A stretch of DNA of 64,000 nt from an uncultured Alphaproteobacteria bacterium (GTDB lineage: Bacteria > Pseudomonadota > Alphaproteobacteria > ATCC43930 > CGMCC-115725), in the NCBI GenBank assembly GCA_963804725.1, contig CAWDRN010000016.1:108844-172843 (forward strand), given 5' to 3'. The notes under the pieces were generated by a model that saw only the letters and a list, made by a program, of their open reading frames with translations, was not told the DNA's origin and did no database searches. The translations under genes and the position numbers were made by a program. Below, piece after piece: positions 2,490 to 34,107 of this stretch. Numbering within the stretch: position 1 is the stretch's first letter; each line of letters opens with the position of its first letter.

Positions 2490-3566
2490 CTATGCCAGAG
2501 CCATGCTCTTGGTTTCGATCGAGTGCAGCAAATCCTTCCACGAATCGACGAAGGATTTAGCCCCTTCAACCTGCAATTGCGCAGCCAGCGCGGCGACATC
2601 GATGCCAGCACGGATGAAGGCAACCAGGACCTGCTCGGAGTCGCCACCGTCCCGCGATATCACGTGATCTGCAGCGCCGTGTTCCGCGAACGCGAGCAGC
2701 GTCTCCTCTGGCATCGTGTTTATTGTGTTTGGCGCACCCAAAGCGCCAACGTAAAGCACATCGGGTGCCTTAGGATCTTTTGTGCTTGTGCTGGCGAAGA
2801 GCAGCCTTTGCGGCCGCGCCCCCCACCCCTCAAGACGCTGCCAACGATCGGAGTCCAACAGGTCGCGATACGCCTTGTAGCTTTGCTGCGACACCGCGAT
2901 CCCAAGCCGATCCCGAAGATCACTGGGAACCTTGTCCTGTACGGCTTTGTCCCAGCGACTAACGAATATTGAAGCGACAGAACGCACATCGGGACTCAAT
3001 CCGGCTGCAACACGCCGTTCGAGCCCACGCATATAGGCGTCGGCGGCGCGCACATAGTCGTCGCGCGAGAACAGCAGGGTAACATTGATCGGTACCCCAG
3101 AAGCGATCGCCTCCTCGATGGCGGGCAGCCCCTCCAAGGTTCCGGGAATTTTGATAAACAAGTTCGGGCGCTTGGCGCTAGCATGCAATGCGCGCGCCTC
3201 AGCCACGGTCTTGGCAGTATCATGCGCAAGGAGCGGCGAGACCTCGAGCGAAACCCAGCCATCAACGCCCGCGGTTCGCTGGTGGATCGGAGCGAACATG
3301 TCAGCCGCCTTCGTCAGGTCCTGGATCGCCAGCTCAAAAAACAGTGCTTCACCTTTTTTGCCGGCGCGTACCTGGCGCCTGATTTCATCGTCGTACGAGT
3401 TGCTGTGGGCAATGGCGCGATCAAAAATTGTTGGGTTCGACGTGAGGCCAGTCACCGACAATTCGTCGATGTATCGCCGAAGAGTGCCGTTGACCAACAA
3501 GTCGCGGTTGATGTTGTCGAGCCACAAACTTTGGCCCAGACGATGTAGCTGCTCCGTCGCCTTCAT
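2490..3566 (-). CDS. tal: transaldolase
   Basis: LWLDNINRDLL, LTSNPTIF and FIKIPGT motifs. The likely start is MKATEQL at 3566 within the longer ORF 2490..3626. Confidence 0.85.
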   Translation of the reverse strand: MKATEQLHRLGQSLWLDNINRDLLVNGTLRRYIDELSVTGLTSNPTIFDRAIAHSNSYDDEIRRQVRAGKKGEALFFELAIQDLTKAADMFAPIHQRTAGVDGWVSLEVSPLLAHDTAKTVAEARALHASAKRPNLFIKIPGTLEGLPAIEEAIASGVPINVTLLFSRDDYVRAADAYMRGLERRVAAGLSPDVRSVASIFVSRWDKAVQDKVPSDLRDRLGIAVSQQSYKAYRDLLDSDRWQRLEGWGARPQRLLFASTSTKDPKAPDVLYVGALGAPNTINTMPEETLLAFAEHGAADHVISRDGGDSEQVLVAFIRAGIDVAALAAQLQVEGAKSFVDSWKDLLHSIETKSMALA

Positions 3567-3579
3567 TTCCAATCTCCCA

Positions 3580-4248
3580 TCACTGTCTCGCGTTGTCGGA
3601 GAACTCGTGCGCGACAAGATCCGCAATGTGGTTCAACTGAATTTCGCCGTGCGGATACTTGGCCAGGGCTTCGGGATCCGTCGCATAGTGTCCTTGGCGC
3701 GCAAATACCGTGGTAACTTGTGATCCCCAGAACCTCTTTATCGCATCTAGAATGCGCAGCTTATCATCGATCATCACGTAGTGCTTAGCAGGGTAGCGCC
3801 GCACGACATCGTCCAGCGCTTCCTCCTTGTGAACGTAAATCAGCACATGTCCTTCAAAAACGCGCCACAAACCTGATCGTTCAACCTTACGCGGCTGAAA
3901 CACCGCATCGCCATCTGACAGAATAACCACCGGACCCCATTGTCGAACGTGTCTTACCGCATCGAGCGCACCGGGATAGAGCCGTTCCGCGAAGGGATAA
4001 TCGACCAGCCAGTTCGATGTGCTGAGCACTCTTGGGTCGCACATGGCTTCGAGGCGGTAACGTTCGAGTGCCCCGATATAGTCGGCATAACCCAGTTCGT
4101 TGCGAAGTGTCTCAAAAATTTCCCAATAGCGATTGCGTGCGGCGGCGCCGTGTTCCGCGCTAAGATACTTGTCCAGATCAGCTTGCACGCGATCGTTGTC
4201 GAGTAGTGTGTTGTCGACATCAAATAGAAAAGCGATCTCGTGCGTCAT
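3580..4248 (-). CDS. HAD-superfamily hydrolase
   Basis: FLFDVDNTLLDND motif I, plus SDGD and IDDK motifs. The start MTHEIAF at 4248 overlaps the zwf stop. Confidence 0.7.
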   Translation of the reverse strand: MTHEIAFLFDVDNTLLDNDRVQADLDKYLSAEHGAAARNRYWEIFETLRNELGYADYIGALERYRLEAMCDPRVLSTSNWLVDYPFAERLYPGALDAVRHVRQWGPVVILSDGDAVFQPRKVERSGLWRVFEGHVLIYVHKEEALDDVVRRYPAKHYVMIDDKLRILDAIKRFWGSQVTTVFARQGHYATDPEALAKYPHGEIQLNHIADLVAHEFSDNARQ

Positions 4249-5645
4249 GAAGAAGCTCCAGTGACTGCGCTCGGGTTTCGCCATGGGCCATCGCCATCAA
4301 TCAGCGCTTCTGACTCGCCTGGACCCCACGTTCCTGGCGCATACGGATAGACAGGCGTGACGTTGCCGAGAATCGGTTCGACGATGCGCCATTGCGCATC
4401 CACGATATCGTCGCGACCGAACAATTCGCTAACCCCGCGCATCGCATCGCCAAGCAACCGCTCATAGGGTGGCCGCAGGTTTGGCGCATGCTCGGTCAGG
4501 ATCATCTCGACGTCCTCTCCCACCATGCGCTCGCCGGGAAGCTTCACGCGCACCCCCATGGCGATGCTGACATCGGGGCTAATGCGCATACGCATATGTC
4601 CCGAGCTCGACGGCACCAGCTCGTCGAACGTCTCACGCGGCGGTCGTTTGAAATGCACCATGACTTCCGTCGCCGTCACGGGGAGCATCTTGCCGGCGCG
4701 GATGTATATCGGCACGTGGGCCCAGCGCCAGGAGTTGATGTATAACTTCAATGCAACGAAGGTCTCCACGTTCGACCCCGCACGCACACCGGGCACCGAC
4801 TGGTATCCGGTGTACTGCCCGCGGACCACATCGGAGACGTCCAGTGGCCGCATCGCTTTCAGCAACGCCGCTTTCTGGTCCCGTACTGCTTCGGTTTCCT
4901 CACCAGTCGGCGGATCCATCGTCAGTTGCGCCAGGACCTGCAGCATGTGATTTTGCACCACGTCGCGAATGGCGCCCGTTTCATCATAAAAATGTCCGCG
5001 ATCCTGAACGCCGAAATCCTCGGCCATTGTGATCTGGATGCTGCTGATATATTCGCGATTCCACAGTGGCTCGAACATCGAATTCGCGAAACGCGTGTAG
5101 ATGAGGTTCTGGACCGGCTCCTTGCCGAGGTAATGATCGATACGGAAGATGTTCTCTTCGGGGAAATACTGTGACAGCAGACGGCTGAGTGCGCGTGCCG
5201 TACCGCGGTCGTGCCCAAACGGCTTCTCGATCACTAGACGTGCGCCAGCTGCGGAGCCCGAATTCGCCAAACCTTTCGCTACCGTCGCAAACAAGCTCGG
5301 AGGGACCGCGAGATAATGTAGCGGTCGCTGTGCCGTACCAAGCTTTGTGTGCAGTTCGACGAACGTGTTCTCGTCGCTGTAATCCCCATCCACGTAGCGC
5401 AGCAGATCCAACATCCGTTGCAGCACCTCGGGCTTGGTGTCCTTGCCGCCGTGCTGCTGCACACTATCCACTGCGCGTGCCTTCAATTGGTCCAGGTTCC
5501 ATCCCGCTTTGGCGACACCGATGATCGGGACGTTGAGCCCTTCGTCACGTACTAATCCCAGTAATGCCGGAAAGATCTGTTTGTGAGCCAGATCGCCTGT
5601 CGCACCGAAAAAGACGATCGCATCGGATGGACTTGTTACGGTCAT
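4245..5645 (-). CDS. zwf: glucose-6-phosphate 1-dehydrogenase
   Basis: FFGATGDLAHKQIFPAL, RIDHYLGKE and the overall length match Zwf. Confidence 0.9.
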   Translation of the reverse strand: MTVTSPSDAIVFFGATGDLAHKQIFPALLGLVRDEGLNVPIIGVAKAGWNLDQLKARAVDSVQQHGGKDTKPEVLQRMLDLLRYVDGDYSDENTFVELHTKLGTAQRPLHYLAVPPSLFATVAKGLANSGSAAGARLVIEKPFGHDRGTARALSRLLSQYFPEENIFRIDHYLGKEPVQNLIYTRFANSMFEPLWNREYISSIQITMAEDFGVQDRGHFYDETGAIRDVVQNHMLQVLAQLTMDPPTGEETEAVRDQKAALLKAMRPLDVSDVVRGQYTGYQSVPGVRAGSNVETFVALKLYINSWRWAHVPIYIRAGKMLPVTATEVMVHFKRPPRETFDELVPSSSGHMRMRISPDVSIAMGVRVKLPGERMVGEDVEMILTEHAPNLRPPYERLLGDAMRGVSELFGRDDIVDAQWRIVEPILGNVTPVYPYAPGTWGPGESEALIDGDGPWRNPSAVTGASS

Positions 5646-5831
5646 GGTGTCCTGCAGGTTGTTATCGGGACGGCCTTCGAATGCGAAGCGGATTGGCGGC
5701 CGGGATGCGGTTGGTAATCGGCGTTGCCGCGTGACTCGATCCTAGAGTAGAGCACCGCGCTCGTGACTGGCACTTCCACGCCTTTGCGGTTTTCTCGTGA
5801 AGAAGACACGGTGGATTTGCCTCCTTGGTAG

Positions 5832-7922
5832 TCAGTGGTGCCGAGAGCCGATGGCGGTTTTGGCCGCGGCGGTAACGCTATCGACAGTGAAGCCAAAATG
5901 TTCAGCGACGACTTTCATCGGGGCCGACATGCCGAACGTGTTCATTCCCAGAACCTCCCCAGCAGAACCGGCGTAACGCGCCCAACCTAGTGGCGAGCCC
6001 TCCTCGACAGCCACGCGTGCCGTTACTGAAGGGGGCAACACGCTGGCGCGGTACCCTGGATCTTGCTCTTCGAAAAGTTCCCATGAAGGCATGCTGACCA
6101 CCCGGGCCATGATGCCGTCAACCCCAAGCTTCTCGCGTGCCCCCAGGCACAGCGCTACTTCACTACCGCTGGCGATGAGGATTACGTCCGGCGTCCCCTT
6201 CGTGTCCGCGAGAATGTAAGCGCCCTTGGCAAGCCCGGAGGCTGCCGCCAAGTTGCTACGATCCAAGATTGGCAGCGCCTGCCGTGAGCAGATCAGTGCG
6301 ACCGGCCGGCTCGTCAACTTCAGCGCGCAGCGATACGCCTCGGACATTTCGTTGGCATCGGCAGGGCGGATCACCACCATGCCCGGAATGGCACGCAGCG
6401 AAACAAGTTGCTCGACCGGTTCATGTGTCGGTCCATCTTCGCCAACACTTATCGAATCATGAGTCCAAATGTGGATCACGGGCAGATCCATCAACGAGGC
6501 AAGCCGGATGGCGCCGCGCGCATAGTCGGTGAAGATGAGAAAACCCGAGCCGAACGCTCTGAGGCCACACAATGTCATGCCATTTACCGCCGCGCACATG
6601 GCGTGTTCGCGAACGCCGTAGTGCATGTTGCGGCCGTGATAGTCACCGATGGGTCCCATGGCCTGAAAATCGCCGGCCGTTGCGAAGGTTAGCCGTGTCT
6701 TAGTGCTGGGGGCGAGGTCCGCTGCCCCGCCGACGATCCAAGGGATGCGTTGTGCGACCGCATTCAGGACTCTGGCAGATGCATCTCGTGTGGAGATTCC
6801 ACCGGCATTTTGCGGAAATGCCGGTAACACCGCTTCCCAGCCCTCCGGCAATTCACGCTTGCCCATGCAGGTAACCTGCTCGGCTAGGTCCGGATATTCG
6901 GCGCGGTAACGCTGAAACATCAACTGCCACGCGGCAGATAAGGCCGCGCCACGTTTGCCCAGGTGTGCTGCGAAATGGTCGCGCACGCCGTCCGGTATGA
7001 CGAAACTCTGCAAGGGATCGAAGCCAAAGAATTGCTTGACGAGGCGCACCTCCTCTTCGCCGAGCGGCTCGCCGTGCGCTTCGGGCGAATCATGCTTGTG
7101 CGGCGAGCCGTAACCGATATGGCTTTGCACAATGATGAGGGTGGGCCGATCGGACGTGCGCAAAAAGCTCTGGTATGCCCGCTCGAGCCGCGGCGTGTCG
7201 TTGGCATCAACCACCTGCAGGACGTTCCAGCCATATGCCAGGAAACGTCCGGCCACGTCCTCGGTGAAAGCTATGTCAGTGTGGCCTTCAATGGTGACGC
7301 GGTTGCAGTCGTAGATCCAGCACAGGTTGGACAACCGAAGATGTGCTGCTGTTGAAGCGGCCTCACTAGAGATACCCTCCATCATATCGCCGTCACCGCA
7401 GAGGGCATAGACGTTGAAGTCAAATAGGTCGAAACTTGGCCGATTATAGGTGGCACCAAGCCACCGGGCGGCGATCGCCATACCAACACTGGTCGCGACA
7501 CCTTGGCCGAGCGGGCCCGTGGTTGTCTCAACACCAGTAGTCCAACCGTACTCCGGATGGCCCGGACAACGGCTCCCCGCCTGCCGGAAGGTCTTGATGT
7601 CATCGAGCGTCACGGCTGCGCGGTCCGCACTCTCATAGCTTCTACTGCTCGCCTTCACCCCGGCAAGGTGGATCAGGCTGTAGAGCAGCATGGAAGCATG
7701 GCCGCTCGACAACACGAAGCGGTCGCGATTGATCCAGTCAGGGTTTTGGGGATCAAAGCGCAGGATGCGCTGCCACAACGTGTATGCTGTCGGCGCCGCG
7801 TCCAATGGCGTACCTGGATGGCCGGACTTTGCCTTTTGCACGGCGTCCACAACCAGCATTCGAATGGTGTCGATCGCTAGCTGATCCATCCCAGCCTGGT
7901 TCTTGACTTCGTTGCCTGCCAT
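5832..7922 (-). CDS. tkt: transketolase
   Basis: 696-aa ORF with GHPG, GDGDMMEGIS and THDSISVGEDGPTHEPVEQL motifs. Confidence 0.9.
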   Translation of the reverse strand: MAGNEVKNQAGMDQLAIDTIRMLVVDAVQKAKSGHPGTPLDAAPTAYTLWQRILRFDPQNPDWINRDRFVLSSGHASMLLYSLIHLAGVKASSRSYESADRAAVTLDDIKTFRQAGSRCPGHPEYGWTTGVETTTGPLGQGVATSVGMAIAARWLGATYNRPSFDLFDFNVYALCGDGDMMEGISSEAASTAAHLRLSNLCWIYDCNRVTIEGHTDIAFTEDVAGRFLAYGWNVLQVVDANDTPRLERAYQSFLRTSDRPTLIIVQSHIGYGSPHKHDSPEAHGEPLGEEEVRLVKQFFGFDPLQSFVIPDGVRDHFAAHLGKRGAALSAAWQLMFQRYRAEYPDLAEQVTCMGKRELPEGWEAVLPAFPQNAGGISTRDASARVLNAVAQRIPWIVGGAADLAPSTKTRLTFATAGDFQAMGPIGDYHGRNMHYGVREHAMCAAVNGMTLCGLRAFGSGFLIFTDYARGAIRLASLMDLPVIHIWTHDSISVGEDGPTHEPVEQLVSLRAIPGMVVIRPADANEMSEAYRCALKLTSRPVALICSRQALPILDRSNLAAASGLAKGAYILADTKGTPDVILIASGSEVALCLGAREKLGVDGIMARVVSMPSWELFEEQDPGYRASVLPPSVTARVAVEEGSPLGWARYAGSAGEVLGMNTFGMSAPMKVVAEHFGFTVDSVTAAAKTAIGSRHH

Positions 7923-14553: not shown

Positions 14554-14640
14554 TGCGGATTCCGGCGATGTCGCCCGGTCATTCCGAGATCATGTCGCTC
14601 CCTGTTCCGACATGATGTCGCCTGGTTGAGCGGCGTCCTG
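14554..14640. repeat. IS21 terminal inverted repeat with three subterminal repeats (istB-proximal end)
   Basis: gattccggcgatgtcgcccgg, attccgagatcatgtcgctcc and gttccgacatgatgtcgcctgg are reverse complements of the repeats at 20896-21015. Confidence 0.8.
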
Positions 14641-14824
14641 CTGGCGGAGTGGTTTTGGCAACTATCGAGTTGACGGTCAATCCCCTGAGATTGTTGACCG
14701 GTGGGGGTCTGTGGACCCCGGTGTCCGACACGCAGGGTCCGCGACCGATGCCACACCGGTTGAGGCTGAACGAGACATGATCTAAACCGAACAACGCCGA
14801 ACAACTACGAAGGCGTTGGCATCT

Positions 14825-15139
14825 ATGACGGGTCGAACCCGACGAAAGAAGAAGCGCCGCGCGTTACCGGCGAAGGTTCCCGACATTCTAGACGTGACGA
14901 TGGCGGCACAATTTCTGACGGTCTCGCCGGATACGGTGTACAGCCTGTTTCAAAGCGGGGAGTTACCCGGTCGCAAAGTTGGCCGCAAATGGGTGACTAC
15001 GAAGGCGGCGGTGTTGCGCTGGATTGAAAGCTCAAGCGCGGATGACACCCTCGCCCGCGCGGTCAAGCGCGGCGATCGTGATGCCCTGGCCAAAGCCATC
15101 AATCGCGGCAAAGCGAGAATACGGGGCGGCTCGTCGTGA
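14825..15139 (+). CDS. excisionase/MerR-type HTH protein, a passenger ORF inside the IS21 element
   Basis: AAQFLTVSPDTVYSLFQSGELPGRKVGRKWV matches the excisionase-family HTH pattern. It lies between the istB stop and the IS end, antisense to istAB. Confidence 0.55.
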   Translation: MTGRTRRKKKRRALPAKVPDILDVTMAAQFLTVSPDTVYSLFQSGELPGRKVGRKWVTTKAAVLRWIESSSADDTLARAVKRGDRDALAKAINRGKARIRGGSS

Positions 15140-15205: not shown

Positions 15206-15952
15206 TCAATCCTTTGAGATTTTTTTTGGCCGGGTCCGGCGCATGCTGTCGCCGGTAAGATCGATGCGATAGGCGTTGTGGACGAGGCGATCGAGGATGG
15301 CATCGGCGTAGGTTGGGTTACCGATGACATCATGCCATTTGTCGACCGGGATCTGGCTGGTGAGGATGGTTGAGCGGCGGGCGTATCGCTCTTCGAGGAT
15401 CTCGTAGAGATCGCGGCGTGCGTCGGCATCGAGTGGATCGAGACCCCAGTCATCAAGAATCAGCAACTCGACGGCGGTTAGGCTGCGCATGATGCGGGCA
15501 TAGCGGCCGTCGCCGCGCGCCAGCGCGAGATCGGCGAACAGCTTTGGCACGCGCTGGTAAAGGACGGAATGGTTGTCGCGGCAGGCCTTATGGCCGAGGG
15601 CACAGGCAAGCCAACTTTTGCCGATGCCGGTTGGACCGCACAGGATCAAATTGTGGTGCGTGACGATCCAATCGCTGTCGGCGAGCTTATGAAACAGCCC
15701 GCGATCGAGGCCCCGCGGGGACCGGTAATCGACATCCTCGATGACGGCGTGATGGCGCAATCGGGCATAGCGCAGCCTGGCGGCGAGGCGCTTGTCGCGG
15801 CGATGCGTGGTCTCGCGATCGACGAGCATGCCGAGCCAGTCGGCGTGGGTCAGGGTGGTGGCGTCGCCGGAGGCTTCGAGTTCGGCGAAGGCTTGAGCCA
15901 TGCCGGAAAGCCCGAGCTGGGCGAGCTGATCGAGTATCGGATGGGTCAGCAC
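15206..15952 (-). CDS. istB: IS21-family helper ATPase IstB
   Basis: Walker A GPTGIGKS, LLILDDWG and the typical 248-aa length. Confidence 0.9.
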   Translation of the reverse strand: MLTHPILDQLAQLGLSGMAQAFAELEASGDATTLTHADWLGMLVDRETTHRRDKRLAARLRYARLRHHAVIEDVDYRSPRGLDRGLFHKLADSDWIVTHHNLILCGPTGIGKSWLACALGHKACRDNHSVLYQRVPKLFADLALARGDGRYARIMRSLTAVELLILDDWGLDPLDADARRDLYEILEERYARRSTILTSQIPVDKWHDVIGNPTYADAILDRLVHNAYRIDLTGDSMRRTRPKKISKD

Positions 15953-15971: not shown

Positions 15972-16751
15972 TTAGTGGTAATAGCGGGGCCCGCGGATAT
16001 TGCGGTGGAGGACGGTGACGGCATCGGTTGGCTTCGGTTGCGCGGCGTGGCGATCGAGTTTGTTGTCGAGGATCGAGCGCACCGAGCCGTAGTTGAGCGT
16101 GCCGATCTCGATGGCGCGCTCGGCCGCGGCTTCGAGGCGGGCTGTGCCGAACGGTCGGACGAGGCGAATGATTCCGAGGCAGGAGCGAAAGCCCTGTTCG
16201 GGGTGTGGCCGGTGCTCGAGGATCAGCGCGCATAAGGCAGCGGTGGCGGGCCCGATCGCGGCGGCCTCGCGGCGAATGCGCTCAACCGTCCAGTCGGCAT
16301 AGCGGCGATGGCTCGACGGCATGTGGTCGGGTACCGTGGTGTGGTGGTGATTGCCGCTGGAGCGCAGATGCGTGGCGATCCGCTCGCCCTTCAGGAAGAT
16401 CTCGCCGGTGCGCGGTGTCAGGCGCACCGCGACTTCGCGGCGGGCATAGCGATAAGGCACGCTATAGAAGTGCGCCTCGACCGCGACGTGGTAATCGATG
16501 CCGACGCGGCGCAGCCGCCATTCGGCGAAGACGTAAGGCTCGCTGGGCAACGCCTTGAGGTGTGGCCGATCGAGTTCCTCGAGCAGCGCACGGCGGGTGA
16601 CGCCGAGCCGGCGGATCGGCCGCTCCTCGTTGAGCTGGCGCAGGAACTCGCCAATCGCCGCGTTGAGTTCCGCGAGGCTGTAGAAGCGGCGATGGCGCAG
16701 CCGGCCCAAAAGCCAACGTTCTACGACTAAAACCGCTAATTCTACCTTCGC
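15972..16751 (-). pseudogene. istA: IS21 transposase IstA, C-terminal half (gene split by the nested insertion)
   Basis: ..KAKVELAVLVVERWLL.. continues the N-terminal half, which ends ..PRRPRDK at 20061. Joining 16751 to 20061 restores GAC AAG GCG AAG (DKAK) in frame, giving about 516 aa in total. Confidence 0.85.
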
Positions 16752-16753
16752 TT

Positions 16754-17059
16754 TGGAGGCGGCCGTCAATTGCGGGTTGTGCGGGCACGACCAGTCGGAC
16801 GGTCCGGATCACGCATCCATTCCATCCGCTGGTAGGGTGTGAGTTTGTTCTGGTCTGTCGGCGCCTGGATTGGGGTGAAGACCGCGTCGTGTACCTCTCC
16901 GCCGAGGGCACGCTACGCTCGATTGCCGCCGGTCTGACGGACGTTGAGCCACCTGACGAATTCCAGCGCATAGCGGCTGGCCGTGCGGCGTTCCGCACGG
17001 CCGATCTCCACGAGCTCCACGCCATACTGGCACGGCTGGACGTTGCGGACGGTATGTAA
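16754..17059 (+). CDS. small conserved-looking ORF without a start codon in the integrated state
   Basis: Manual translation gives ..VRITHPFHPLVGCEFVLVCRRLDWGEDRVVYLSAEGTLRSIAAGLTDVEPPDEFQRIAAGRAAFRTADLHELHAILARLDVADGM*. There is no ATG/GTG/TTG upstream of the conserved-looking N-terminus, and the frame is open to the element's left end. Confidence 0.45.
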   Translation, partial: WRRPSIAGCAGTTSRTVRITHPFHPLVGCEFVLVCRRLDWGEDRVVYLSAEGTLRSIAAGLTDVEPPDEFQRIAAGRAAFRTADLHELHAILARLDVADGM

Positions 17060-17225
17060 AGATAAATCCGCCGCTGATGTCAATACAACTATGCCGCACC
17101 ATCGGACGGAACCGAGAGGAATACCTGATATTTCCGCTGTTAATTCTACATCATGTGACGGAGCACCCTTGACATGCCATATGTAGAGGCGTATTTACAT
17201 TTACAAACAGGGACGAGGATCGGAT

Positions 17226-17702
17226 ATGCGTTTGCCGCAGCGGCAAGATCCAAAGCGCCAGGCATTGGCGCGAGATGGCGTCCTCAACCCACATCCCGCG
17301 GCCGTGCGCGATCCGCTGTTCAGCGGCAACCCATTCTTCGATCCCAGGGACCTGGTTCAGGTGCGCTACGAGATGGTGCGACGTCACGATGCCGACGGCA
17401 TGCCTGTCAGCGACGCGGCGGCATCATTCGGGGTCTCCCGGCCAACCTTCTACAAGGCGCAAAGCTCACTCGCGGCATCGGGTCTGGCCGGGCTTGTGCC
17501 CCAACACCGCGGACCAAAACAAGGTCACAAACTCTCTGCCAACGTGATCGACTTCGTCGTCGCTCTCAAAGCCAGACAGCCCGACCTGACGACGCCACAG
17601 TGTCTCACCGCGGTCGAGGCAGAGTTCGGTGTCAAAGTCCACCGACGCAGTCTGGAGCGGGCCTTGGCTCGCAAAAAAAAATCGCGCCCGCCGACCCCGT
17701 GA
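17226..17702 (+). CDS. helix-turn-helix protein (first gene of the recombinase operon)
   Basis: VSDAAASFGVSRPTFYKAQ HTH motif. The stop overlaps the next ATG (ATGA-type coupling). Confidence 0.6.
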   Translation: MRLPQRQDPKRQALARDGVLNPHPAAVRDPLFSGNPFFDPRDLVQVRYEMVRRHDADGMPVSDAAASFGVSRPTFYKAQSSLAASGLAGLVPQHRGPKQGHKLSANVIDFVVALKARQPDLTTPQCLTAVEAEFGVKVHRRSLERALARKKKSRPPTP

Positions 17703-17977
17703 TGGTACCGACGCGCACCGCACAGGACTACGAGATACTCCGCGCATCCGTGCTGAGTTCGGCGCCGCCCCGCGGTTCGGGAATCGGGACCGTCTGTCAT
17801 CAAGGTCTGGCGAACTGGCTCAAACAGCCGGTGTCGGAACCGGTCGCGCCGACGTGCGCATACCCGCACAACGTATCGCCTGCGGCCGGAGCTGGATCGA
17901 CTGGGAGCAGCACCGAACTGACTCGTGTCATTGCCGATATCGTGGTTGCACTTGCGCTGGAGCCAGAACATGTCTGA
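17702..17977 (+). CDS. small hypothetical protein, translationally coupled
   Basis: The ATG at 17702 overlaps the upstream stop, and its own stop overlaps the recombinase ATG at 17970. Confidence 0.45.
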   Translation: MVPTRTAQDYEILRASVLSSAPPRGSGIGTVCHQGLANWLKQPVSEPVAPTCAYPHNVSPAAGAGSTGSSTELTRVIADIVVALALEPEHV

Positions 17978-20051
17978 ACTCGTCAAGGTTACCGCCGAGC
18001 ATCTCAAGCGTGACGCCTATCTCTACATTCGGCAGTCGACCTTGCGCCAAGTGGCAGAGCATGGGGAGAGCACGCAGCGTCAGTACGCGCTGCGCGATCG
18101 GGCTCTTGTCGGCGGCTGGCCTATCGAGCGTATCCATGTCATCGACTGCGATCTCGGCAAGTCAGGCGCCAACGCAACCACGCGTGACGGGTTTCAGCGG
18201 CTGGTCAGCGAAGTCGCCCTTGGCAAAGCCGGTATCGTCATGGGGCTTGAAGTCTCTCGCCTTGCCCGTAACTCGGTCGATTGGCATCGGCTCATCGAGT
18301 TGTGTGCGCTGACATCCACGCTCATACTCGATGAAGAAGCAATTTACGATCCGGCGAGCTTTAACGATAGGCTGCTTTTGGGCCTAAAAGGCACGATGTC
18401 CGAAGCAGAGTTGCACATCCTCAAGGCGCGGATGCGTGGCGGCCAACTCAATAAGGCACGCCGAGGAGAACTCGAGATGCAACCGCCCGTTGGTCTCATC
18501 TATCGCAGCGATGGCGTCATAGATCTCGATCCTGATGCTGAAGTCCAAAGCGCGGTACGTCTTGTGTTCGATACCTTTGAGCGGACTGGAAGCGCTATGC
18601 AAACAGTGCGCTTCTTCCGGGACAAACGCATTCCATTCCCGACGCGGCTTCATGGTGGCCCCAGAAAAGGCGAGCTGATATGGGCGCCACCCCGGCATAG
18701 CCGCATACTGCGCATTCTGCATAACCCACGCTATGCGGGTGCCTTTGTCTATGGCCGGACCCGTACGCGTCACCTGCCGGCGGGTGGCTCCACCTCGGTT
18801 AGGGTGCCACGGGAAGACTGGCAGTTCTTCATGCCAGGACAGCATCGCGGATACATCGATTGGGATCGCTTCGAGAGCAATCAGCGGCGTTTGGCCGACA
18901 ATGCCCGAGCTTTTGGCGGCGAACGACGCTCAGGGCCAGCCCGAGAGGGCACCGCGTTGCTGCAAGGACGGGTTCTGTGTGGTCGGTGCGGTGAACGGAT
19001 GGGCATCCACTACCAACAGGAGCACGGTCAGAGCGTCCCAGTCTATGTCTGTCAAGAATCCCTGGTGCGTCGCGGTGGCAAGATCTGTCAATCGATCGCC
19101 GGGAAAGCCGTCGATGTGGCGGTCGGCGCGCTGCTCATCGAACTCATGACGCCGATGACGCTGGAAGTCACGCTCGCCGTGCAGCGAGAGCTGGAGGCGC
19201 GCGCCGCCGAGGTCGATGCCTTGCGCCAGCAGCATCTCGAGCGGACGCGCTACGAGGCAGAACTTGCCCGCCAGCGTTACATGCTCGTCGATCCGGGAAA
19301 CCGCCTCGTTGCCGACGCGCTTGAGGCGGAGTGGAACGACAAGCTACGTGTGCACACTGACGCAGTGGCTGAGTACGACAGATTCAACAATCAGCAAGCT
19401 TCCTCGCTCGATGCTGAAGCGCGCCGATGCATTCTGGAGCTCGCCGAACAGTTCCCAAAAATCTGGCATGATCCGCGTGTCGACATGCGCGAGCGCAAGC
19501 GCATCCTGCGTCTGTTGGTTGAAGATGTCACCTTGATCAAGGCAGAAGCGATCACAGCCCATGTCCGTTTGTCGGGTGGTGCTATCCGAACTCTGACGCT
19601 TGAGCGGCCCCGGCCTATCGCCCAAATCCGCAAGTTCAAGCCTGAACTGGTGGCAGAGGTCGACCAACTCCTTGATGATCACTGCGACCGGGAGATCGCT
19701 GAGATCCTGAACCAACGTGGGCGGTGTACCTGGGAGGGGAAGCCCTTCAACCTGAAAAAGATCGCGTTCATCCGGATGGCGTATCAGCTTGCTAGTCGTT
19801 ACACGCGGTTGCGCCGCCGTGGTTTGCTCACCACTCACGAGGTAGCTGAGCGCTTCGGCGTCGGTCGTACCGCAGTTCATCAATGGGGACGCGAGGGCCT
19901 CATCCAAAAATGCTATGCTGACAGCTTGCACCGCGGTCTCTGGAAGTTGCCGCCAGGTCAGACGATTCTCAAAGGCCGTGGCGGGCGGGCAGCGCGCCCA
20001 GCCCGATTGGCGCCCATTACCGTATCAAACCTCGAACAAGGTGCAGTATGA
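17970..20051 (+). CDS. large serine recombinase (resolvase domain, recombinase domain and zinc ribbon)
   Basis: AYLYIRQSTLRQ (catalytic Ser), GLEVSRLARN, LKGTMSEAELHILKARM and CGRCGERM...YVCQ...GKICQ zinc-ribbon cysteines; about 693 aa. Confidence 0.85.
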   Translation: MSELVKVTAEHLKRDAYLYIRQSTLRQVAEHGESTQRQYALRDRALVGGWPIERIHVIDCDLGKSGANATTRDGFQRLVSEVALGKAGIVMGLEVSRLARNSVDWHRLIELCALTSTLILDEEAIYDPASFNDRLLLGLKGTMSEAELHILKARMRGGQLNKARRGELEMQPPVGLIYRSDGVIDLDPDAEVQSAVRLVFDTFERTGSAMQTVRFFRDKRIPFPTRLHGGPRKGELIWAPPRHSRILRILHNPRYAGAFVYGRTRTRHLPAGGSTSVRVPREDWQFFMPGQHRGYIDWDRFESNQRRLADNARAFGGERRSGPAREGTALLQGRVLCGRCGERMGIHYQQEHGQSVPVYVCQESLVRRGGKICQSIAGKAVDVAVGALLIELMTPMTLEVTLAVQRELEARAAEVDALRQQHLERTRYEAELARQRYMLVDPGNRLVADALEAEWNDKLRVHTDAVAEYDRFNNQQASSLDAEARRCILELAEQFPKIWHDPRVDMRERKRILRLLVEDVTLIKAEAITAHVRLSGGAIRTLTLERPRPIAQIRKFKPELVAEVDQLLDDHCDREIAEILNQRGRCTWEGKPFNLKKIAFIRMAYQLASRYTRLRRRGLLTTHEVAERFGVGRTAVHQWGREGLIQKCYADSLHRGLWKLPPGQTILKGRGGRAARPARLAPITVSNLEQGAV

Positions 20052-20060
20052 AGCCATCGT

Positions 20061-20831
20061 CTTGTCCCGTGGGCGTCGTGGCCGCGCCGGGAGGATCGCA
20101 GCGATGCCGTAATGGGCCGCCATCTCGGCATAAGTGCGATTGACTTGCGGCTCGTAGAGGCACGCTTTGATCACGGCCACTTTGGTATTGTCGGGCACGA
20201 GCAGGTTTGGCACCCCACCGATCGCTTCCAGAGCACCGATATGAGCGGCGATCCAATCGCCGAGCTTCTGTGTCCAGGTCGCGTGGGCGTAGGTGAAGTT
20301 GGAGGCGCCCAACACCGCGACAAAAATTTGCGCTGGGCGAAACTCGCCCGTGAGCCGATCGATGATCACCGGGACCGTGTCGCCGGCGTAATCGACAAAC
20401 AGCTTGTCGCCGCCGGCGTGGCTTTGCCGCATCGTGACCGAAATCCGCGAGGCCCAACCACGGTACAGCTCACAAAACCGCGAATAGCGATACCCGTCCG
20501 GATGCCGCTCGATGTACTCGTCCCACAAGATCTGCAGCGTCACGTGCTTGCGCTTCAGTTCGTGATGAACCGCCGCCCAATCGGGCTCCGCGCGGCGGCG
20601 GTGGCCTTGCTTGGTGCCGACCGCCGTGAAGAGCTGCGCCTCCAGGGCGGCATCGGTTATCTCCGCCGCTAACGGCCAGCTCAGGCCGGCGGCGGCGAGC
20701 CGCTTCAACGTCAGCCGAACGGTCGATGGCGCAACCCCGACCCGGCGGGCGATCTCGTTGCCGGATACCCCGGCGGCCTTTAGCCGAAGCACATCGCGCA
20801 CTTGGCGCATTGCGATCCTCTCTGCTGGCAT
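20061..20831 (-). pseudogene. istA: IS21 transposase IstA, N-terminal half
   Basis: HTH (NEIARRVGVAPSTV) and the start of the DDE core (LFVDYAGD, ASNFTYAHATW). The frame runs into the inserted element after ..PRRPRDK. Confidence 0.85.
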
Positions 20832-20895: not shown

Positions 20896-21015
20896 CCCGG
20901 GCGACATCATCCCGGGAACAGCGGGCGACATCATCTCGGAACGCCGAGCGAGATCAAATCGGAATGGCGGGCGACATCATCTCGGAATGCCGGGCGACTT
21001 GTCCCGGAATCATCA
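20896..21015. repeat. IS21 terminal inverted repeat with subterminal repeats (istA-proximal end)
   Basis: Four copies of a (C/G)GGGCGAC(A/T)T(C/G)(A/T)TC(C/T)CGGAA-like motif. Confidence 0.8.
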
Positions 21016-27866: not shown

Positions 27867-30126
27867 CTACTCACGGGGTAGCAATGGCATAAAATCCGGC
27901 TGCGCCTCGAGCAGCAGGTTTTCGTCGATCGTTTCGAACTCGCTGCCGTCTCCGGCGATTTCGATAAGTCTGTCGAAATCAGCCGGTTTGTAGCCTTCGC
28001 TCTCTGCGAATGGCGAAGGAAGCAAAATAGGGTAAGTCACCAGGCAGCCGTCGTCATCGAGCCGGACGCGCATGGCGTCGCGTTTGCTCCGCCATTCGAA
28101 GCTCATCTGGCGCGTCTCGACTCTCCATCTTCCGGCTAGCGAAGGCTTGCCCCGGGCGAGTGCGAGCCGGCATCCGTAAAACACCCGGATCTTGACCGGG
28201 ACCGAGGGGATGAGCTGCCGGTCACGAAGCATATTTGCGATGGCGCTGGGCTGACGCAGCTTTGCGGTCCACTCAGCAAACATCCTTTGAAACTCAGGCA
28301 CGGCATCGCCGATGAACGAGCGCGGCGCGCCGCGCGATTTGAGCGATGCCTGTATCGGATGGCGACCAGTAAACGCCGGGCTGCGCTATGAAGAGATCGG
28401 GCCAGACTTTTTCTTCCCATTGTCCCAGGCCTTCGCCGATATCGAGCGACAACGGCCGGGTGCTGAATACCGCGTCGGTCGCCAGCATAACTATGGCTTC
28501 GGGATCCTGCCCGACGGCTTCGATGAGTCGCGCTCTGGTCATCGCAGTGACGAGCCCGGCCGCGACCACATCGTGATAGGGGCCGCGTCCGGTACGCTGC
28601 GCCATCTTGCCGTACAGCGAAGCCAATCCGAGCTTTAGCGGATAGCCGCGGGTTGCGGAACCGATCCGGCTGCGCTCGTCGTACAGCGCTGGCACCCAGT
28701 CAAACATCCGGCAATTACACTCGCACCGGGCGATCCACAAATCGCGGACCGCGATCATGTTGGTGCCGAGCCAGCGTCGGGCCGCTGCAATTTCGCATGA
28801 CCAGTACCAGCCGGTTCCTTGCACCGGCCAAAACAGGCCGCCATTATGCCGGAACGGCAGGCCGCACCATGGTCCGGCGGGGTGCGTGAAGGCGATTTTT
28901 GCGAGATAAAGCCCGCTCTCGGGCAAACGGCTGGCGCGCGGCCGGTGAAGCCATCGAGTATGCAGCGGGCACGGCAGCTCGGGCATTCCGGCGGGATAGG
29001 CGCTGTTTATGTCATATTGGTAAACCAGCCTGGCGAACGGACCGCCGATCGGTCCGATGCGCGACACTTCGGTACGGCCACCATAATAGGCGAAGTTGGC
29101 GGCGGCCTCGAATTCAGGATCGCGTTCCGGCCGGCGAACCCTTGCCGGGCTCCGGTTTTTGCCGGGCTGGCGTCCGGCAAGAGCCGCTGTCTCCTTCGCG
29201 GTGAGAGGACGCTTCGGTATACCGTGGTGATCCAGCAACGCTGCCGCGAGCCATCCTGCGCCGCTCCATTGCTTCGGCGAGATGCCTGCCGTGGTACAGA
29301 CCGTGCGGAATTCCGTCATCAGCATAGCCGCACAGCGGCATTCCAGCTTGCAGTATTCGATGATTTCCGGAGTCAGCTCGGAGAATTCGTCGCGATGCTC
29401 TTTGTTTCTGGTGATGAAGGCGCGTTCCTCTTCGCTGCCGATGTTCCATTTCTTGACCGCTTCCGTAAACGAGCACTGGAAAAAACCGAATGCCTCGTAA
29501 ACGGTTCGGGTTGAGCCTTTGATGATGCCCGGTCTCGGCTGGCTGCGATCGACGCGGGCGACCCGGAAATACTGGCCTTGCTGATAGATGAGCGCGTAGT
29601 CGCCCCAATAGGTATAGCACGGGCCGTTTTTGCCTTGCGGCGGGTCGAGTATCCGCTTCAAGGTCGGGATCTTGCTGATCCCGCGTAAGATCTGATTTGC
29701 GTCGTAGCCGAAGTAAAAGCCGATGAGTATCGGTTCGGCGGGAAGCGACAACAGGAATTCGAGACAATCGCGAACGGACAAGGGCTTGCCGTCGCAGTGC
29801 TTAACGTGTTCCTCGCCTGCGGTCGGTCCTGAAGCAGCCATCAACAAATAGGGTTGGCGTCCCAGGTGATCGGTTCCGGCGCCTTCGCCGTCGATCGCCA
29901 TAAACGGGCGAAGCTTCGTTCGGGCATGGTTGCGTTTGCGTTCCTTGGCAGCCTCGCGCTGCTCTGGGGTCTGCCGTTTACGCGCTTCCTGCTGGCGGAT
30001 ACGCGCTCGCTCACGCACACGCTGCCGCCGGAGTTCCAGAAGACACTGGTAATCTGCGCCGCGCGCCCGGATCATTTCGTCAATACGCGCTCTGATGACA
30101 CGATCGATCATCGCCGACACTTCCAT
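27867..30126 (-). pseudogene. family-B DNA polymerase (protein-primed / primer-independent-like) with one frame break (or an assembly indel)
   Basis: ExoI FMAIDGEG, ExoII FYFGYDANQIL, ExoIII EYCKLECRC, motif A YDINSAYPAG, motif B KLGLASLYGK, motif C LATDAVF, then LKSRGAP after a frame switch near 28340-28375. ORFs 28294..30126 and 27867..28301 join. The span is 2260 nt, one more than a multiple of 3. Confidence 0.75.
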
Positions 30127-31660: not shown

Positions 31661-32629
31661 GTGCGCCGGCCTAAGAAACCCAAACGGCTGAGCGAGGCCG
31701 CGCTCCTTGCTTTAACCGGGATTTCACACCGCAACCTAACGCGTCGGCGTCAGCAACGCTTGGTCAAGGCAGTGGAACCCCGCCGCGGTCGCGGACATGG
31801 TGGCGGGCGTGGCACCACACCGCTCGAATATTCGAGCGCGGAAGTGCCGAAAATCGAAGACCTGAAAAGATGGCGCCGAAAATTCAAGAACTCCATCGAG
31901 TGGCGATGGCGTCTGTCACGCGACGGTCACGACGTTGGGATCGCGCCCGATCTTGCCGAAACGCTAAAAGAAACGCTGAATTGGCTAAGAGAGGCATTGA
32001 AGAGGGAGGCGTTGAAGATCGAAACGCCCGCCGACGTCGATGCGATAACCGCGTGCCTTTGGAAGCCGGCGGATATGCCGCGCGGCAATCCGCTACGAAA
32101 AATCTTCAAGGGTCTTAATCCGAAAGAGGCGCGCGACCTGTTGACGATGCTCTTTTGCGTTGTTCTCGGCATCCGGCTGCCGCTGTTCGACGAGCCGAAC
32201 CCCTACCCATTTCAGGTTTTCAAGCGTGTCTTCGGACTGCCGAAAGAATGGCAAATGCCGCCGGGTCTCTTCGACGTTTTCCCTAACATGCACGACCAAA
32301 TTGTCACCGGGCTCTCCAAGGTCACCGCCGAAGAGTTGAAAAGCGCATGGAGAGTGTGCCGGTTTTTAGATCGCGTCCTCAGTGAGCCGGAGATTCCGAA
32401 GCGCGATGTCAAAGTCATCACCAGATCCGGCATTCCTTCACAGCCGATCAAGCTAGCCAGTTTGATGTGGTCGTCGCCGGTCACGCGCGCCGCGACCGTC
32501 GGCCTCATTATCTTCTGGCTGCGTGGGATCAAGTCTGCGCTTGGCAAAAACGACGCGGCTGTCCTCGACCGGTCTGTCGCTCCCATCTTCAAGTATGCCA
32601 CCTCTGGCGCAAGCACGACGGAATGCTAA
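31661..32629 (+). CDS. hypothetical protein with an N-terminal HTH-like segment, upstream of the Cas1 gene
   Basis: GGAGAG lies 6 nt before the GTG at 31661. RLSEAALLALTGISHRNLTRRRQ. No recognisable family. The stop overlaps or abuts the Cas1 start. Confidence 0.5.
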   Translation: MRRPKKPKRLSEAALLALTGISHRNLTRRRQQRLVKAVEPRRGRGHGGGRGTTPLEYSSAEVPKIEDLKRWRRKFKNSIEWRWRLSRDGHDVGIAPDLAETLKETLNWLREALKREALKIETPADVDAITACLWKPADMPRGNPLRKIFKGLNPKEARDLLTMLFCVVLGIRLPLFDEPNPYPFQVFKRVFGLPKEWQMPPGLFDVFPNMHDQIVTGLSKVTAEELKSAWRVCRFLDRVLSEPEIPKRDVKVITRSGIPSQPIKLASLMWSSPVTRAATVGLIIFWLRGIKSALGKNDAAVLDRSVAPIFKYATSGASTTEC

Positions 32630-32637
32630 GGCGCGCC

Positions 32638-34107
32638 ATGCACGCCGACAACACGATCTACACCCGCATCAAGAACGGCATCGTCGTCGTCAGCGGCACT
32701 GGTCCGGCGATCCATATCGACGGCAAACGCCTCGTCATCCGCGACGGGCCGCTCGAAACACCACCCTTGCGCCTAACGCGCGCGGAAGCCCATCGCCGGC
32801 TGCGGCATATCATCGTCGTCGGCGATTACGGCGGATACGTCAGCTTCGACGCGCTGCGCTGGCTGCGCGACGCCGGCGTAGGATTCTCACAGCTTGATTG
32901 GAACGGCACCGTCATCGCTACAAGCCCGAGCCCTGATTTGCCGGCACTGCGCAGGGCGCAGGTGCTGGCCTGCAGCGGTGCCATTCCGGGAGCCGTCAGC
33001 GCCATCACGCGCGAAATTTTGCGCGTCAAGCTTACCGGGCAAGCCCGAGTGGCGAAGATGCTCAGCTCGGTCGAAGGTATCACTCCAAAGCAATCACTCG
33101 CTGCGAGCGCTGCCATCGCCGAGCTCGCTGCGGAAGTAGCACGCGAAACGGACATCTCTCGGATGCTGATGTTCGAAGCTCATGCTGCGGGGTTTTACTG
33201 GCAGATCTGGGAAGATGTCCCCATCAGGTTCGCGCGGCGCAACCCGAAGCGTCTTGGGCCGGGCGGACGCTGGCAGCCGGGCCGGCCCGATCCATGGCTG
33301 GTATTCGGTCCAAGGGCGTCACTCCTGACCGGGCAACCCTACCGGGCGACAACGCCGGGAAATGCTGTCTTGAACTGGCTATATGCGATCTGTCAAACCG
33401 AACTGACGATTGCCCTTCTTACCGCCGGCATCGATCCTGGTATCGGGCTCTTTCATGTTGATATGCCAAACCGGCCGTCACTGGCTCTCGATGGTATCGA
33501 AGCGCTGCGGCCCTATGTCGATCTTTGGCTGTTCGGCTATCTCGTCAATTCGGTCTTTGCCAACCGCGACTTTACCGAGTTGCGCGATGGCGAGGTCCGG
33601 CTGACGCACCCGCTCAATGCACACCTTGCCCATACCGCGGCGCTGTGGCGTCAAGTGTGCGAGCCTGTCGCGGACTGGCTCAAAGAGAGCTTTATAGGCG
33701 CGGCAGAGACATCGCTTGCCTATACTCGGCGATCACTCAACCAGAGCAGCCTCTCTGGCGCTGGAGCAGTACTTCGCGAGGGGCGCAGCATAGTGTCGGC
33801 CGCCCAACCGCGGCACCGCGCAAGGGGGCAAGGCGTTGCCTCGCCCGAACGGTCGCGGCAACAGGGGCGTCCGGCGGTCTCGCCGCTAGCGCGGGTGCTG
33901 CCGACCCTGGCTTCTTCTTCGCGGCCGGCGCCGGGTTCGTGGGGGCCGAACCATTGGTTCGGCCGGCTCACGGATGAACCGGTTCCACGTATATGCCGTG
34001 AGTGCGGGCGCGCGATGCTGCGAATCCACCGCGTATTTTGCAGCCTTAAATGTGCTGTGTATAACTATCGAGCGCAGAACCGTTCCTCATCGGGCCAGGC
34101 CGAATAA
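32638..34107 (+). CDS. cas1: Cas1-family integrase (casposase-like, stand-alone)
   Basis: N-domain IIVVGDYGGYVSFDALRWLRDAGVGFSQLDWNG. Helical domain FEAHAAGFYW (Glu), PGNAVLNWLYAICQTEL (Asn), GIDPGIGLFHVDMPNRPSLALDGIEALRPYVD (His, Asp, Glu). This aligns with E. coli Cas1 E141/H208/D218/D221. The C-terminus has CRECG...FCSLKC cysteines. An alternative ATG is at 32623. Confidence 0.8.
   Translation: MHADNTIYTRIKNGIVVVSGTGPAIHIDGKRLVIRDGPLETPPLRLTRAEAHRRLRHIIVVGDYGGYVSFDALRWLRDAGVGFSQLDWNGTVIATSPSPDLPALRRAQVLACSGAIPGAVSAITREILRVKLTGQARVAKMLSSVEGITPKQSLAASAAIAELAAEVARETDISRMLMFEAHAAGFYWQIWEDVPIRFARRNPKRLGPGGRWQPGRPDPWLVFGPRASLLTGQPYRATTPGNAVLNWLYAICQTELTIALLTAGIDPGIGLFHVDMPNRPSLALDGIEALRPYVDLWLFGYLVNSVFANRDFTELRDGEVRLTHPLNAHLAHTAALWRQVCEPVADWLKESFIGAAETSLAYTRRSLNQSSLSGAGAVLREGRSIVSAAQPRHRARGQGVASPERSRQQGRPAVSPLARVLPTLASSSRPAPGSWGPNHWFGRLTDEPVPRICRECGRAMLRIHRVFCSLKCAVYNYRAQNRSSSGQAE

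Follow-up and report, generated by a model that had tools for sequence, protein, structure and literature searches.

In a 64,000-nucleotide stretch of DNA from an uncultured Alphaproteobacteria bacterium (contig CAWDRN010000016.1, positions 108,844 to 172,843 of the forward strand; this whole stretch is hereafter the window), we identified an insert at 16753..20063 that is very probably one member of a widespread family of integrative elements of ~3.3 kb, which a large serine recombinase (LSR) moves and which parasitise transposase genes. As read from aligned junctions, this family targets the codons for the catalytic-glutamate motif of rve-fold DDE transposases. LSR-driven transposons and integrative elements are a known kind; new here are the homing into codons of a transposase catalytic motif and an accessory gene that is rebuilt at attP, the joined ends of the element. 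With the window copy, the family gains a new member; other copies already stand, unrecognised, in many annotated genomes. An initial annotation of this DNA had proposed a serine-recombinase element nested in the transposase gene istA of an insertion sequence (IS) of the IS21 family; it missed the general targeting of rve DDE catalytic motifs, the split DUF5372 gene described below, and sister clades that enter other IS genes.

The insert interrupts istA and leaves only a shared dinucleotide

On the minus strand, the istA gene is broken into two pieces. Its N-terminal part (20064..20831), which holds a helix-turn-helix (HTH) region and most of the rve core, is cut just before the catalytic-Glu motif; read from 20831 to 20061, it ends in ..PARPRRPRDK. 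The C-terminal part (15972..16752, Mu-transpos_C_2) runs from (K)AKVE, with AKVELAV... starting at 16751. Removing 3309 bp (16755..20061 plus one TT) regained an in-frame istA, as initially claimed: the rejoined IstA of 516 aa scored 276.6 bits against the NCBIfam IS21 transposase profile (cut-off 160) and covered positions 4-293 of 294, almost its whole length. Intact istA genes from 215 plasmid records aligned to the fused istA DNA in one piece with no gaps, and the empty site, TCGACCTTGGCC-TT-GTCGCGCGG, was found within intact istA, for example on Bradyrhizobium ottawaense pBoOO86. We conclude from the profile score and the gapless plasmid alignments that the insertion is real and not a chance coincidence of frames. 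The proposal of an LSR element nested in IS21 istA also held, on the basis of domain and profile matches.

TT was present at both junctions of the window element. Read along the istA sense strand, the TT of the left junction (attL, 16753..16754, plus strand) is the AA in the lysine codon of D-K-A-K-V-E; that of the right junction (attR, 20062..20063, plus strand) was placed by the cross-locus junction consensus. The boundary obtained by comparing loci (flank up to 16752, TT, 16755..20061, TT, flank from 20064) is the sole frame-preserving reading with a shared dinucleotide. The bases beside TT differ on its 5' side in the window (t versus c) and on its 3' side in another locus, L037 (c versus a), so that TT is the sole dinucleotide common to attP and attB everywhere. 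No target duplication beyond TT was found at the window junctions, and a repeat search at the element ends returned no noteworthy terminal repeats, inverted or direct. The crossover-like TT core and the lack of a target duplication, both suggested by the initial annotation, are therefore upheld; the aligned junctions of other copies showed no target duplications or terminal inverted repeats either, features that it had named as signs of a DDE-type mechanism.

Conserved arms of ~26 nt and ~19 nt surround TT and are candidate recombinase-binding sites. The left-end (P') arm lies at 16755..16772 (plus strand, GGAGGCGGCCGTCAATTG; family consensus CTCGnAAGTCAnCAACTG) and the right-end (P) arm at 20036..20061 (plus strand, ACAAGGTGCAGTATGAAGCCATCGTC; attR/attP consensus ACAAGGTGCAnTATGAAGCCTACGCC). 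The outer ACTGC of the left arm is the mirror of GCAGT in the right arm (positions 15-19), and the inner positions are weakly symmetric.

The interrupted istA reads 11 codons into the right end of the element before a stop (..PRDK-TMASYCTLFEV; window 20025-20063, minus strand). By its sequence, the integrated state could yield a truncated IstA that contains the HTH region and both Asp residues, without the catalytic Glu.

Relatives occupy the same codons of transposase genes in diverse hosts

Relatives of the recombinase were found on 648 plasmid records, and 80 loci were taken from species-representative genomes. A near-identity search with the 3.3-kb element across plasmids gave no match, relatives being at most ~76% identical at the protein level. 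Where tblastn gave a recombinase at least 52% identical to that of the window and enough flank was available (~30 genome loci), the same gene set was found within the same istA borders: istA residues 256-516 (minus strand) and istB on the left, istA residues 1-242 on the right. The host IstA proteins were 26-62% identical to that of the window, and the elements stayed at 52-76%. In ~45 loci from genomes or plasmids and on 78 contigs from metagenomes, family members sat at homologous codons of rve-type DDE transposase genes in the same orientation, mostly in IS21 istA, with a few in ISNCY or IS3 transposase genes. Hosts included Bradyrhizobium, Paraburkholderia, Ralstonia, Cupriavidus, Zoogloea, Competibacteraceae, Gallionella and several gammaproteobacterial metagenome-assembled genomes (MAGs). 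Members come from Alpha-, Beta- and Gammaproteobacteria as well as other phyla; they sit in a large number of unrelated ISs, and single genomes can carry several copies. Several draft genomes contained the element as a stand-alone contig of ~3.3 kb (3309, 3326, 3328 and 3329 nt), the signature of a collapsed multicopy repeat.

The junction consensus was built from 39 attL and 30 attR sequences; 23 loci had both junctions, and 22 of these were usable, the remaining one (L090) being a tandem pair. With slashes marking the junctions, the attL consensus reads ..TCGACCTTsGCC / TT / CTCGnAAGTCAnCAACTG.. from flank to element, and the attR consensus ..ACAAGGTGCAnTATGAAGCCTACGCC / TT / GTCnCGCGG.. from element to flank. 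TT stood at both junctions in all 27 cleanly read loci, with element lengths of 3260-3332 bp. In 19 of the 22 loci, the reconstituted target encodes ..PRDK/AKVE.. of IS21 IstA or one of the variants DKPKVE, KKGIVE, RKGTVE and EKGRVE. The targets of L091 and L092 are also IS21-type, that of L011 is IS3-type (GNPYDN/AQAES) and that of L014 is ISNCY-type (SQAN/GRVERAN). The crossover falls on AA of a Lys or Asn codon, three residues ahead of Val-Glu.

A flank-unbiased sample was obtained by fetching 78 metagenome contigs by the right-end motif alone, 76 of them with a readable flank. About 57 of the 76 flanks terminate in the IstA-type motif ..HYG....PARP..P.D(K) or a subfamily variant of it, and ~10 more in other rve motifs. 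Whether istA genes are a preferred site, a question raised at the outset, can thus be answered: the loci, the junction alignment and the metagenome sample all show a strong preference.

Several pairs of elements were highly identical though 1.4 kb of their flanks lacked nucleotide similarity. The copies on pNGR234a and pNGR234b of Sinorhizobium fredii NGR234 were 100% identical over 3318 nt; identity was 97.6% between a Ralstonia pickettii plasmid and Cupriavidus pinatubonensis, 93.2% between two Paraburkholderia species, and 85.5% between an IS3 host and an IS21 host. One of the two identical NGR234 copies interrupts an ISNCY transposase gene (L089), whose rebuilt ORF (open reading frame) of 475 aa scored 496 bits (cut-off 250), and the other lies in an IS21-like gene.

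Genes and signals of the window element

The insert encodes four plus-strand products: a DUF5372 protein, an HTH protein, the product of a small ORF (orf3) and the LSR. The recombinase (693 aa, 17970..20051) contains Resolvase, Recombinase and Zn_ribbon_recom domains in that order. The Resolvase match (PF00239, residues 16-167) scored 68 bits (cut-off 23.3), and PF07508 (57.3 bits) and PF13408 (32 bits) were likewise above cut-off and in the expected order. The predicted nucleophile, read from the translation, is Ser23 in YIRQSTLRQ, and the C-terminus includes an HTH_17-like stretch. The protein matched the integrase family PHROG 95 (E 1e-51) and, weakly, the structure of SPbeta SprA (E 3e-7); its best NCBIfam match, XisF, reached 91 bits, far under the cut-off of 375. 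The features of the LSR class are thus present: a catalytic resolvase domain with its serine motif, followed by Recombinase and zinc ribbon, together with a shared 2-bp dinucleotide, no longer duplication and a constant orientation. The small protein with its DNA-binding domain at the N-terminus that marks IS607 does not describe this recombinase, and the insert lacks the DDE domain, terminal inverted repeats and longer duplication of DDE-type ISs; a Pfam search found no DDE domain encoded by it. The recombinase stop ends at 20051, 10 nt ahead of the right TT.

The HTH protein (158 aa, 17226..17702, plus strand) matched Pfam HTH_28, HTH_23, HTH_29 and HTH_32. It resembles the N-terminal DNA-binding part of IS481/IS630 transposases without the catalytic domain, its NCBIfam matches being below cut-off, and its gene is kept in all clade-A loci. 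The gene that follows, orf3 (91 aa, 17702..17977, plus strand), is fast-evolving: 12 homologues were found and Pfam gave no match. It keeps its place in the gene order, as in NGR234 and B. barranii. It is coupled on both sides, by TGATG (17700-04) and by the 8-nt overlap ATGtcTGA (17970-77), in agreement with the three coupled genes of the initial annotation. Searches of DUF5372 and orf3 against PHROG and NCBIfam returned no match.

An alignment of 52 loci revealed the signals upstream of these genes. A sigma-70-type promoter of the HTH-orf3-recombinase operon lies at 17169..17197 (plus strand; TTGACA, 17 nt, TATTTA), and its consensus, TTGACA-17-TAT(A/T)TT, is conserved across clades. A strict promoter consensus scan of the insert listed no site, because the -10 hexamer of the window copy ends in A. 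Two direct copies of a conserved motif, TAAAnTAyGCCGC, are found downstream of the DUF5372 stop at 17062..17097 (plus strand; ATAAATCCGCCGC, AACTATGCCGC) and form a candidate operator or accessory site. A third, inverted copy (GCGGCATA-like) extends across the spacer and -10 of the operon promoter (17186-17197), and all three are conserved across clades. Judging from this arrangement, the motif set looks like operators for the HTH protein or another element-encoded factor.

A DUF5372 gene apparently split by integration

The DUF5372 (Y4bD/Y4pK family) coding region occupies 16754..17059 (plus strand; PF17342, 52.6 bits), with the conserved domain beginning at ..RITHPFHP (~16805). It has 208 homologues, one of them named 'Y4bD/Y4pK family protein' in its source, and its AlphaFold2 model shows a small beta-barrel followed by helices (pLDDT 79). 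In the integrated element, the frame is open from the junction to 17059 with no ATG, GTG or TTG upstream of the conserved domain. The first candidate start is GTG 16889, which corresponds to position 28 of the 78-position PF17342 profile.

The right end of the element carries a Shine-Dalgarno (SD)-like AAGGTG (20038-43) and an ATG (20048-50) that overlaps the recombinase stop (ATGA), together at 20038..20050 (plus strand). Joined to the left end through TT, ATG 20048 is in frame with DUF5372 and yields MKPSSWRRPSIAGCAGTTSRTVRITHPFHP...; the predicted circle joint of the window element is ..CCATCGTC-TT-GGAGGCGG.. With the ribosome-binding site and start within the terminal 25 nt on the right and the rest of the gene at the left, integration parts the coding body from its start.

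The same arrangement was found in other copies. In each of the 27 clean clade-A loci, an ATG or GTG at -14 from TT shares its frame with THPFHP. The N-terminal peptide of the joint ORF varies from 27 to 34 residues across loci and yet the frame holds, so that indels between start and THPFHP are always multiples of three. The SD-like motif also varies (AAGGTG, AGGAGG or AGGAGA), and both SD and start are retained where the recombinase ORF ends earlier (L003, L016, L019 and L024). A canonical internal start in this frame is missing from most of the beta- and gammaproteobacterial copies. A natural head-to-tail pair in Bradyrhizobium sp. INPA01-394B (L090) carries the predicted joint, with a 106-aa ORF called across it.

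At that locus (2723-6840 of JAANIH010000064), two different clade-A elements stand head to tail in one istA, the second ending after the HTH gene. The arrangement suggests either a circle integrated into attL or recombination between elements.

Sister clades in other mobile-element genes

Sister elements of 2.58-2.59 kb encode only DUF5372 and a recombinase ~36% identical to that of the window. A rhizobial clade (L048-L064; for example L051 3524-6113; stand-alone contigs L049 and L052 of 2578 and 2590 nt) interrupts IS66 transposase genes at RP.ALGRKNALFAGS/D.GGE.WA (RKNALFAGS/D.GGE.WA), and one rebuilt IS66 host matched DDE_Tnp_IS66 over its full length with 351 bits. The joint ORF of this clade (MSRQRPSRGHNAGFLTFE..YPFHP) was in frame at 12 of 12 loci, with the start codon at the right end. 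A Vicinamibacterales clade (MAG CBDHGC01, L066-L079; element at L066 3515-6095) is present in one genome in at least nine copies that are 99.2-100% identical. At least five of them lie in Walker-A (GPPGxGKT/S) codons (LLIGPPGTGKSH), including those of IstB of IS21-like elements; one rebuilt host is a full-length IstB (201 bits). The core of this clade appears to be GG/CC within Pro-Pro codons, and its joint ORF was in frame at 5 of 5 loci. Taken as the sequences stand, three clades enter three different invariant mobile-element motifs with one split-gene architecture.

A further clade in Rhizobium spp. (L038, L039, L041, L062 and L063) has a recombinase 46% identical to that of the window and genes for a DUF5372-like protein, an HTH protein and the recombinase. 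Its end sequences are different, istA flanks are absent, and a second, 39%-identical recombinase is encoded ~2 kb upstream.

Proposed mechanism

From established LSR behaviour, we infer that the recombinase would join attP with attB-like DNA inside rve-type DDE transposase genes. The attP site would consist of the element ends joined in a circle, ..ACAAGGTGCAnTATGAAGCCTACGCC-TT-CTCGnAAGTCAnCAACTG.., and the attB-like DNA would be 5'-GAC AA/G GCn AAG GTn GAR, encoding D-K-(A/G)-K-V-E in IS21 IstA. Strand exchange would take place at TT/AA after 2-bp staggered cleavage; since this dinucleotide is non-palindromic, orientation would be fixed, with the element genes antisense to the transposase gene. 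Excision, presumably by way of a circular intermediate, would be exact and would restore the transposase gene in frame, the repaired site of the window reading ..TTCGCT-TT-GTCCCG.. One promoter would drive an operon of the HTH, orf3 and recombinase genes with coupled translation. While the element is integrated, DUF5372 would lie upstream of this promoter and lack a start; in the circle, it would come last in a single coupled transcription unit of all four genes. The element lives as a parasite of ISs, which are multicopy, plasmid-borne and harmless to interrupt, and each insertion inactivates the IS copy entered.

The role of DUF5372 can be stated with low confidence only: it may be a circle-specific accessory or directionality factor. 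A bolder combination of two ideas is possible, if doubtful. According to it, DUF5372, encoded across attP, would be made only from the circle after excision, its translation coupled to that of the recombinase; it would then bind the circle to a new integration or switch the operon off. The superfamily of DUF5372 plus LSR would be a radiation of 'IS hunters' whose clades recognise the DNA of invariant motifs (the DDE Glu of IS21, ISNCY and IS3, RKNxLFAGSDxGG of IS66, and the Walker A of IstB).

Alternative explanations

Several observations weigh against the reading of an active family with a split accessory gene. Exact-protein look-up returned identical copies that all have the window's own flanks, so that this copy need not have been active recently; a search of the window found no second element copy and no other IS21 copy. 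A scan of metagenome contigs for the circle joint gave no match, and among the 78 independently fetched right ends none runs on into a left end. Foldseek searches with the DUF5372 model gave no informative match, only weak SH3/KOW/Tudor-like barrels (best E 0.02). Plausible internal starts (MSTAG.., VGTT.., M/VRITHPFHP) occur in many of the alphaproteobacterial DUF5372 genes, and many of these homologues are annotated with an ATG or GTG a few codons before RITHPFHP, so that DUF5372 may come from integrated copies in some lineages. Part of the conservation of the right-end motif, which falls within the expected attP arm, could reflect binding by the recombinase and not signals for translation. 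The last two points favour the view that the joint frame is incidental, the right-end ..AAGGTGCAnTATGA.. being the recombinase C-terminus plus a binding site and DUF5372 an ordinary protein made from internal starts. We consider this unlikely, since neither the window copy nor most of those from beta- and gammaproteobacteria contain a canonical in-frame start within the element, and the right-end motif persists beyond the end of shortened recombinase ORFs. Moreover, where AAGGTG is replaced, by AGGAGG or AGGAGA, the different sequence is still SD-like, the start-to-THPFHP indels keep to multiples of three, and two distant clades with different end sequences have the same split arrangement.

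Other alternatives concern the mobility of the element. A constant position and orientation in istA would also be expected from a single ancestral insertion in IS21, later inherited or spread by IS21 or by homologous recombination, with a recombinase that does not target istA. Consistent with this, the window contains one copy, and no other flank was found for the exact element. Near-identical elements in unrelated hosts, among them the ISNCY versus IS21-like pair (100%) and the IS3 versus IS21 pair (85.5%), argue against it, as do the common intact istA genes with empty-site sequence and host IstA proteins that fall to 26% identity while elements hold 52-76%. Such elements in unrelated hosts, together with empty sites, rule out both co-divergence from a single ancestral insertion and a passenger module of IS21, and we rejected the two; the ancestral-insertion account as a whole is very improbable. 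Still less credible is a DDE-type or other non-serine mechanism with the recombinase as resolvase or passenger. The HTH protein, with its likeness to the DNA-binding region of IS481/IS630 transposases, would fit such a mechanism, but the insert has no DDE domain, no terminal inverted repeats past the weak dyad of the att arms and no duplication beyond the 2-bp TT, and the minimal sister elements are multicopy at 99.9-100% identity with DUF5372 and recombinase only. On these grounds the DDE mechanism was rejected. Exact restoration of istA upon excision, and XisF as the best (if far sub-threshold) NCBIfam match of the recombinase, would also suit a domesticated, reversible switch of IS21 transposition comparable to the XisF/SpoIVCA developmental excision elements. 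The occurrence across phyla, in many unrelated ISs and in multiple copies within genomes is the pattern of a selfish mobile element rather than of a regulatory device of host or IS, which leaves such a switch with very little probability.

Relation to known systems

The initial annotation had pointed to the y4bA-D/y4pH-K gene sets of NGR234. They belong to the same family by gene order, element ends and a recombinase identity of 53%. The pNGR234a segment 33989-37258 is annotated as DUF5372, HTH, 'transposase' and recombinase, with tblastn identities to window proteins of 46%, 45% and 54%. The NGR234 element shares the gene order, the end motifs (left end TT/CTTTCAAGTCCAGGACTG, right end ..ACAAGGTGCATCGTGATGTCCGCTCC/TT) and the TT junctions and is 3320 bp long, whereas the copies checked differ in their hosts, ISNCY and IS21-like genes rather than an IS21 of the window type. 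These gene sets are probably the repeated element NGRIS-4. In the 1997 work of Perret and colleagues, all NGRIS-4 copies are said to have transposed into other ISs. To our knowledge, that paper did not describe how the recombinase works, that a catalytic motif is the target or that the DUF5372 gene is split. The searchable full-text literature, from which the 1997 NGRIS-4 paper was out of reach, contained no description of the mechanism of the element or of its target motif.

The clostridial elements Tn4451 (TnpX) and Tn5397 (TndX) use an LSR as transposase, excise to a circle and cross over at 2 bp without a larger duplication; in Tn4451, the tnpX promoter is assembled at the circle joint. 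The window element resembles them in being LSR-driven, in its 2-bp core at both ends and in a circle joint that alters expression, the circle being proposed in the case of the window element. It differs from them in having no cargo, a TT core and a target that encodes a transposase protein motif, where Tn4451 and Tn5397 carry resistance genes, use a GA core and have a loose target preference. Furthermore, the joint rebuilds an ORF in the window family and a promoter in Tn4451.

With the LSRs of Bxb1, phiC31, A118, SPbeta (SprA) and CcrAB, the family shares the Resolvase/Recombinase/zinc ribbon order, an attP x attB reaction with a central dinucleotide and small accessory proteins. These phage- and SCCmec-type enzymes target a single host gene; the window family uses degenerate sites in mobile-element genes and has weak sequence similarity to them. 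In addition, a candidate accessory gene that is interrupted by integration is the reverse of the usual logic of recombination directionality factors. IS607 is comparable as a compact element with a serine recombinase as transposase and no target duplication. However, its TnpA has ~200 aa, an HTH N-terminal to the catalytic domain and minimal target specificity, unlike the window LSR of 693 aa with the catalytic domain first.

If the directionality reading is true, the family represents a new kind of directionality control of serine recombinases, reverse to that of phage factors; if the split-gene reading is true, expression of an accessory gene depends on the element's topological state. More generally, recombinase elements found almost exclusively inside transposase genes form a second trophic level among bacterial mobile elements. 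Because transposases cannot change their catalytic-motif codons, a target is present in nearly every genome or plasmid reached, at no cost to the host; and as each IS copy entered loses its catalytic glutamate, the elements may damp IS expansion. The family is also a source of natural LSRs with a defined yet degenerate target. Annotation of ISs is confounded by it: RefSeq records often show calls of 'DUF5372', of 'hypothetical' and of a truncated istA.

The host IS21 element and its neighbourhood

Next to the interrupted istA, the helper ATPase gene istB lies at 15206..15952 (minus strand; IstB_IS21, 238 bits). A cluster of terminal repeats upstream of istA (20898..21007) contains multiple copies of CGGGCGACATCATCyCGG, and at the far end (14561..14622) ATGATGTCGCC is inverted relative to the three GGCGACATCAT copies of 20898-21007. 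The host thus has the features of IS21: istA with HTH and rve, istB, and repeated GGCGACATCAT motifs at both ends. Beyond istB, on the opposite strand, a 107-aa ORF (14816-15139, plus strand) encodes an HTH_17 (excisionase/MerR-like) protein. Going by its repeats, the host IS21-like element appears to reach ~14561-14622 and would then include this ORF.

Elsewhere in the window, a 610-aa ORF (28294-30126, minus strand) matched protein-primed family-B DNA polymerases (DNA_pol_B_2, E 1.8e-8), and a 546-aa ORF (32467-34107, plus strand) ~2.3 kb from it matched Cas1 (E 4e-28). By these matches, the PolB and Cas1 pair would be the signature of a casposon-like element.

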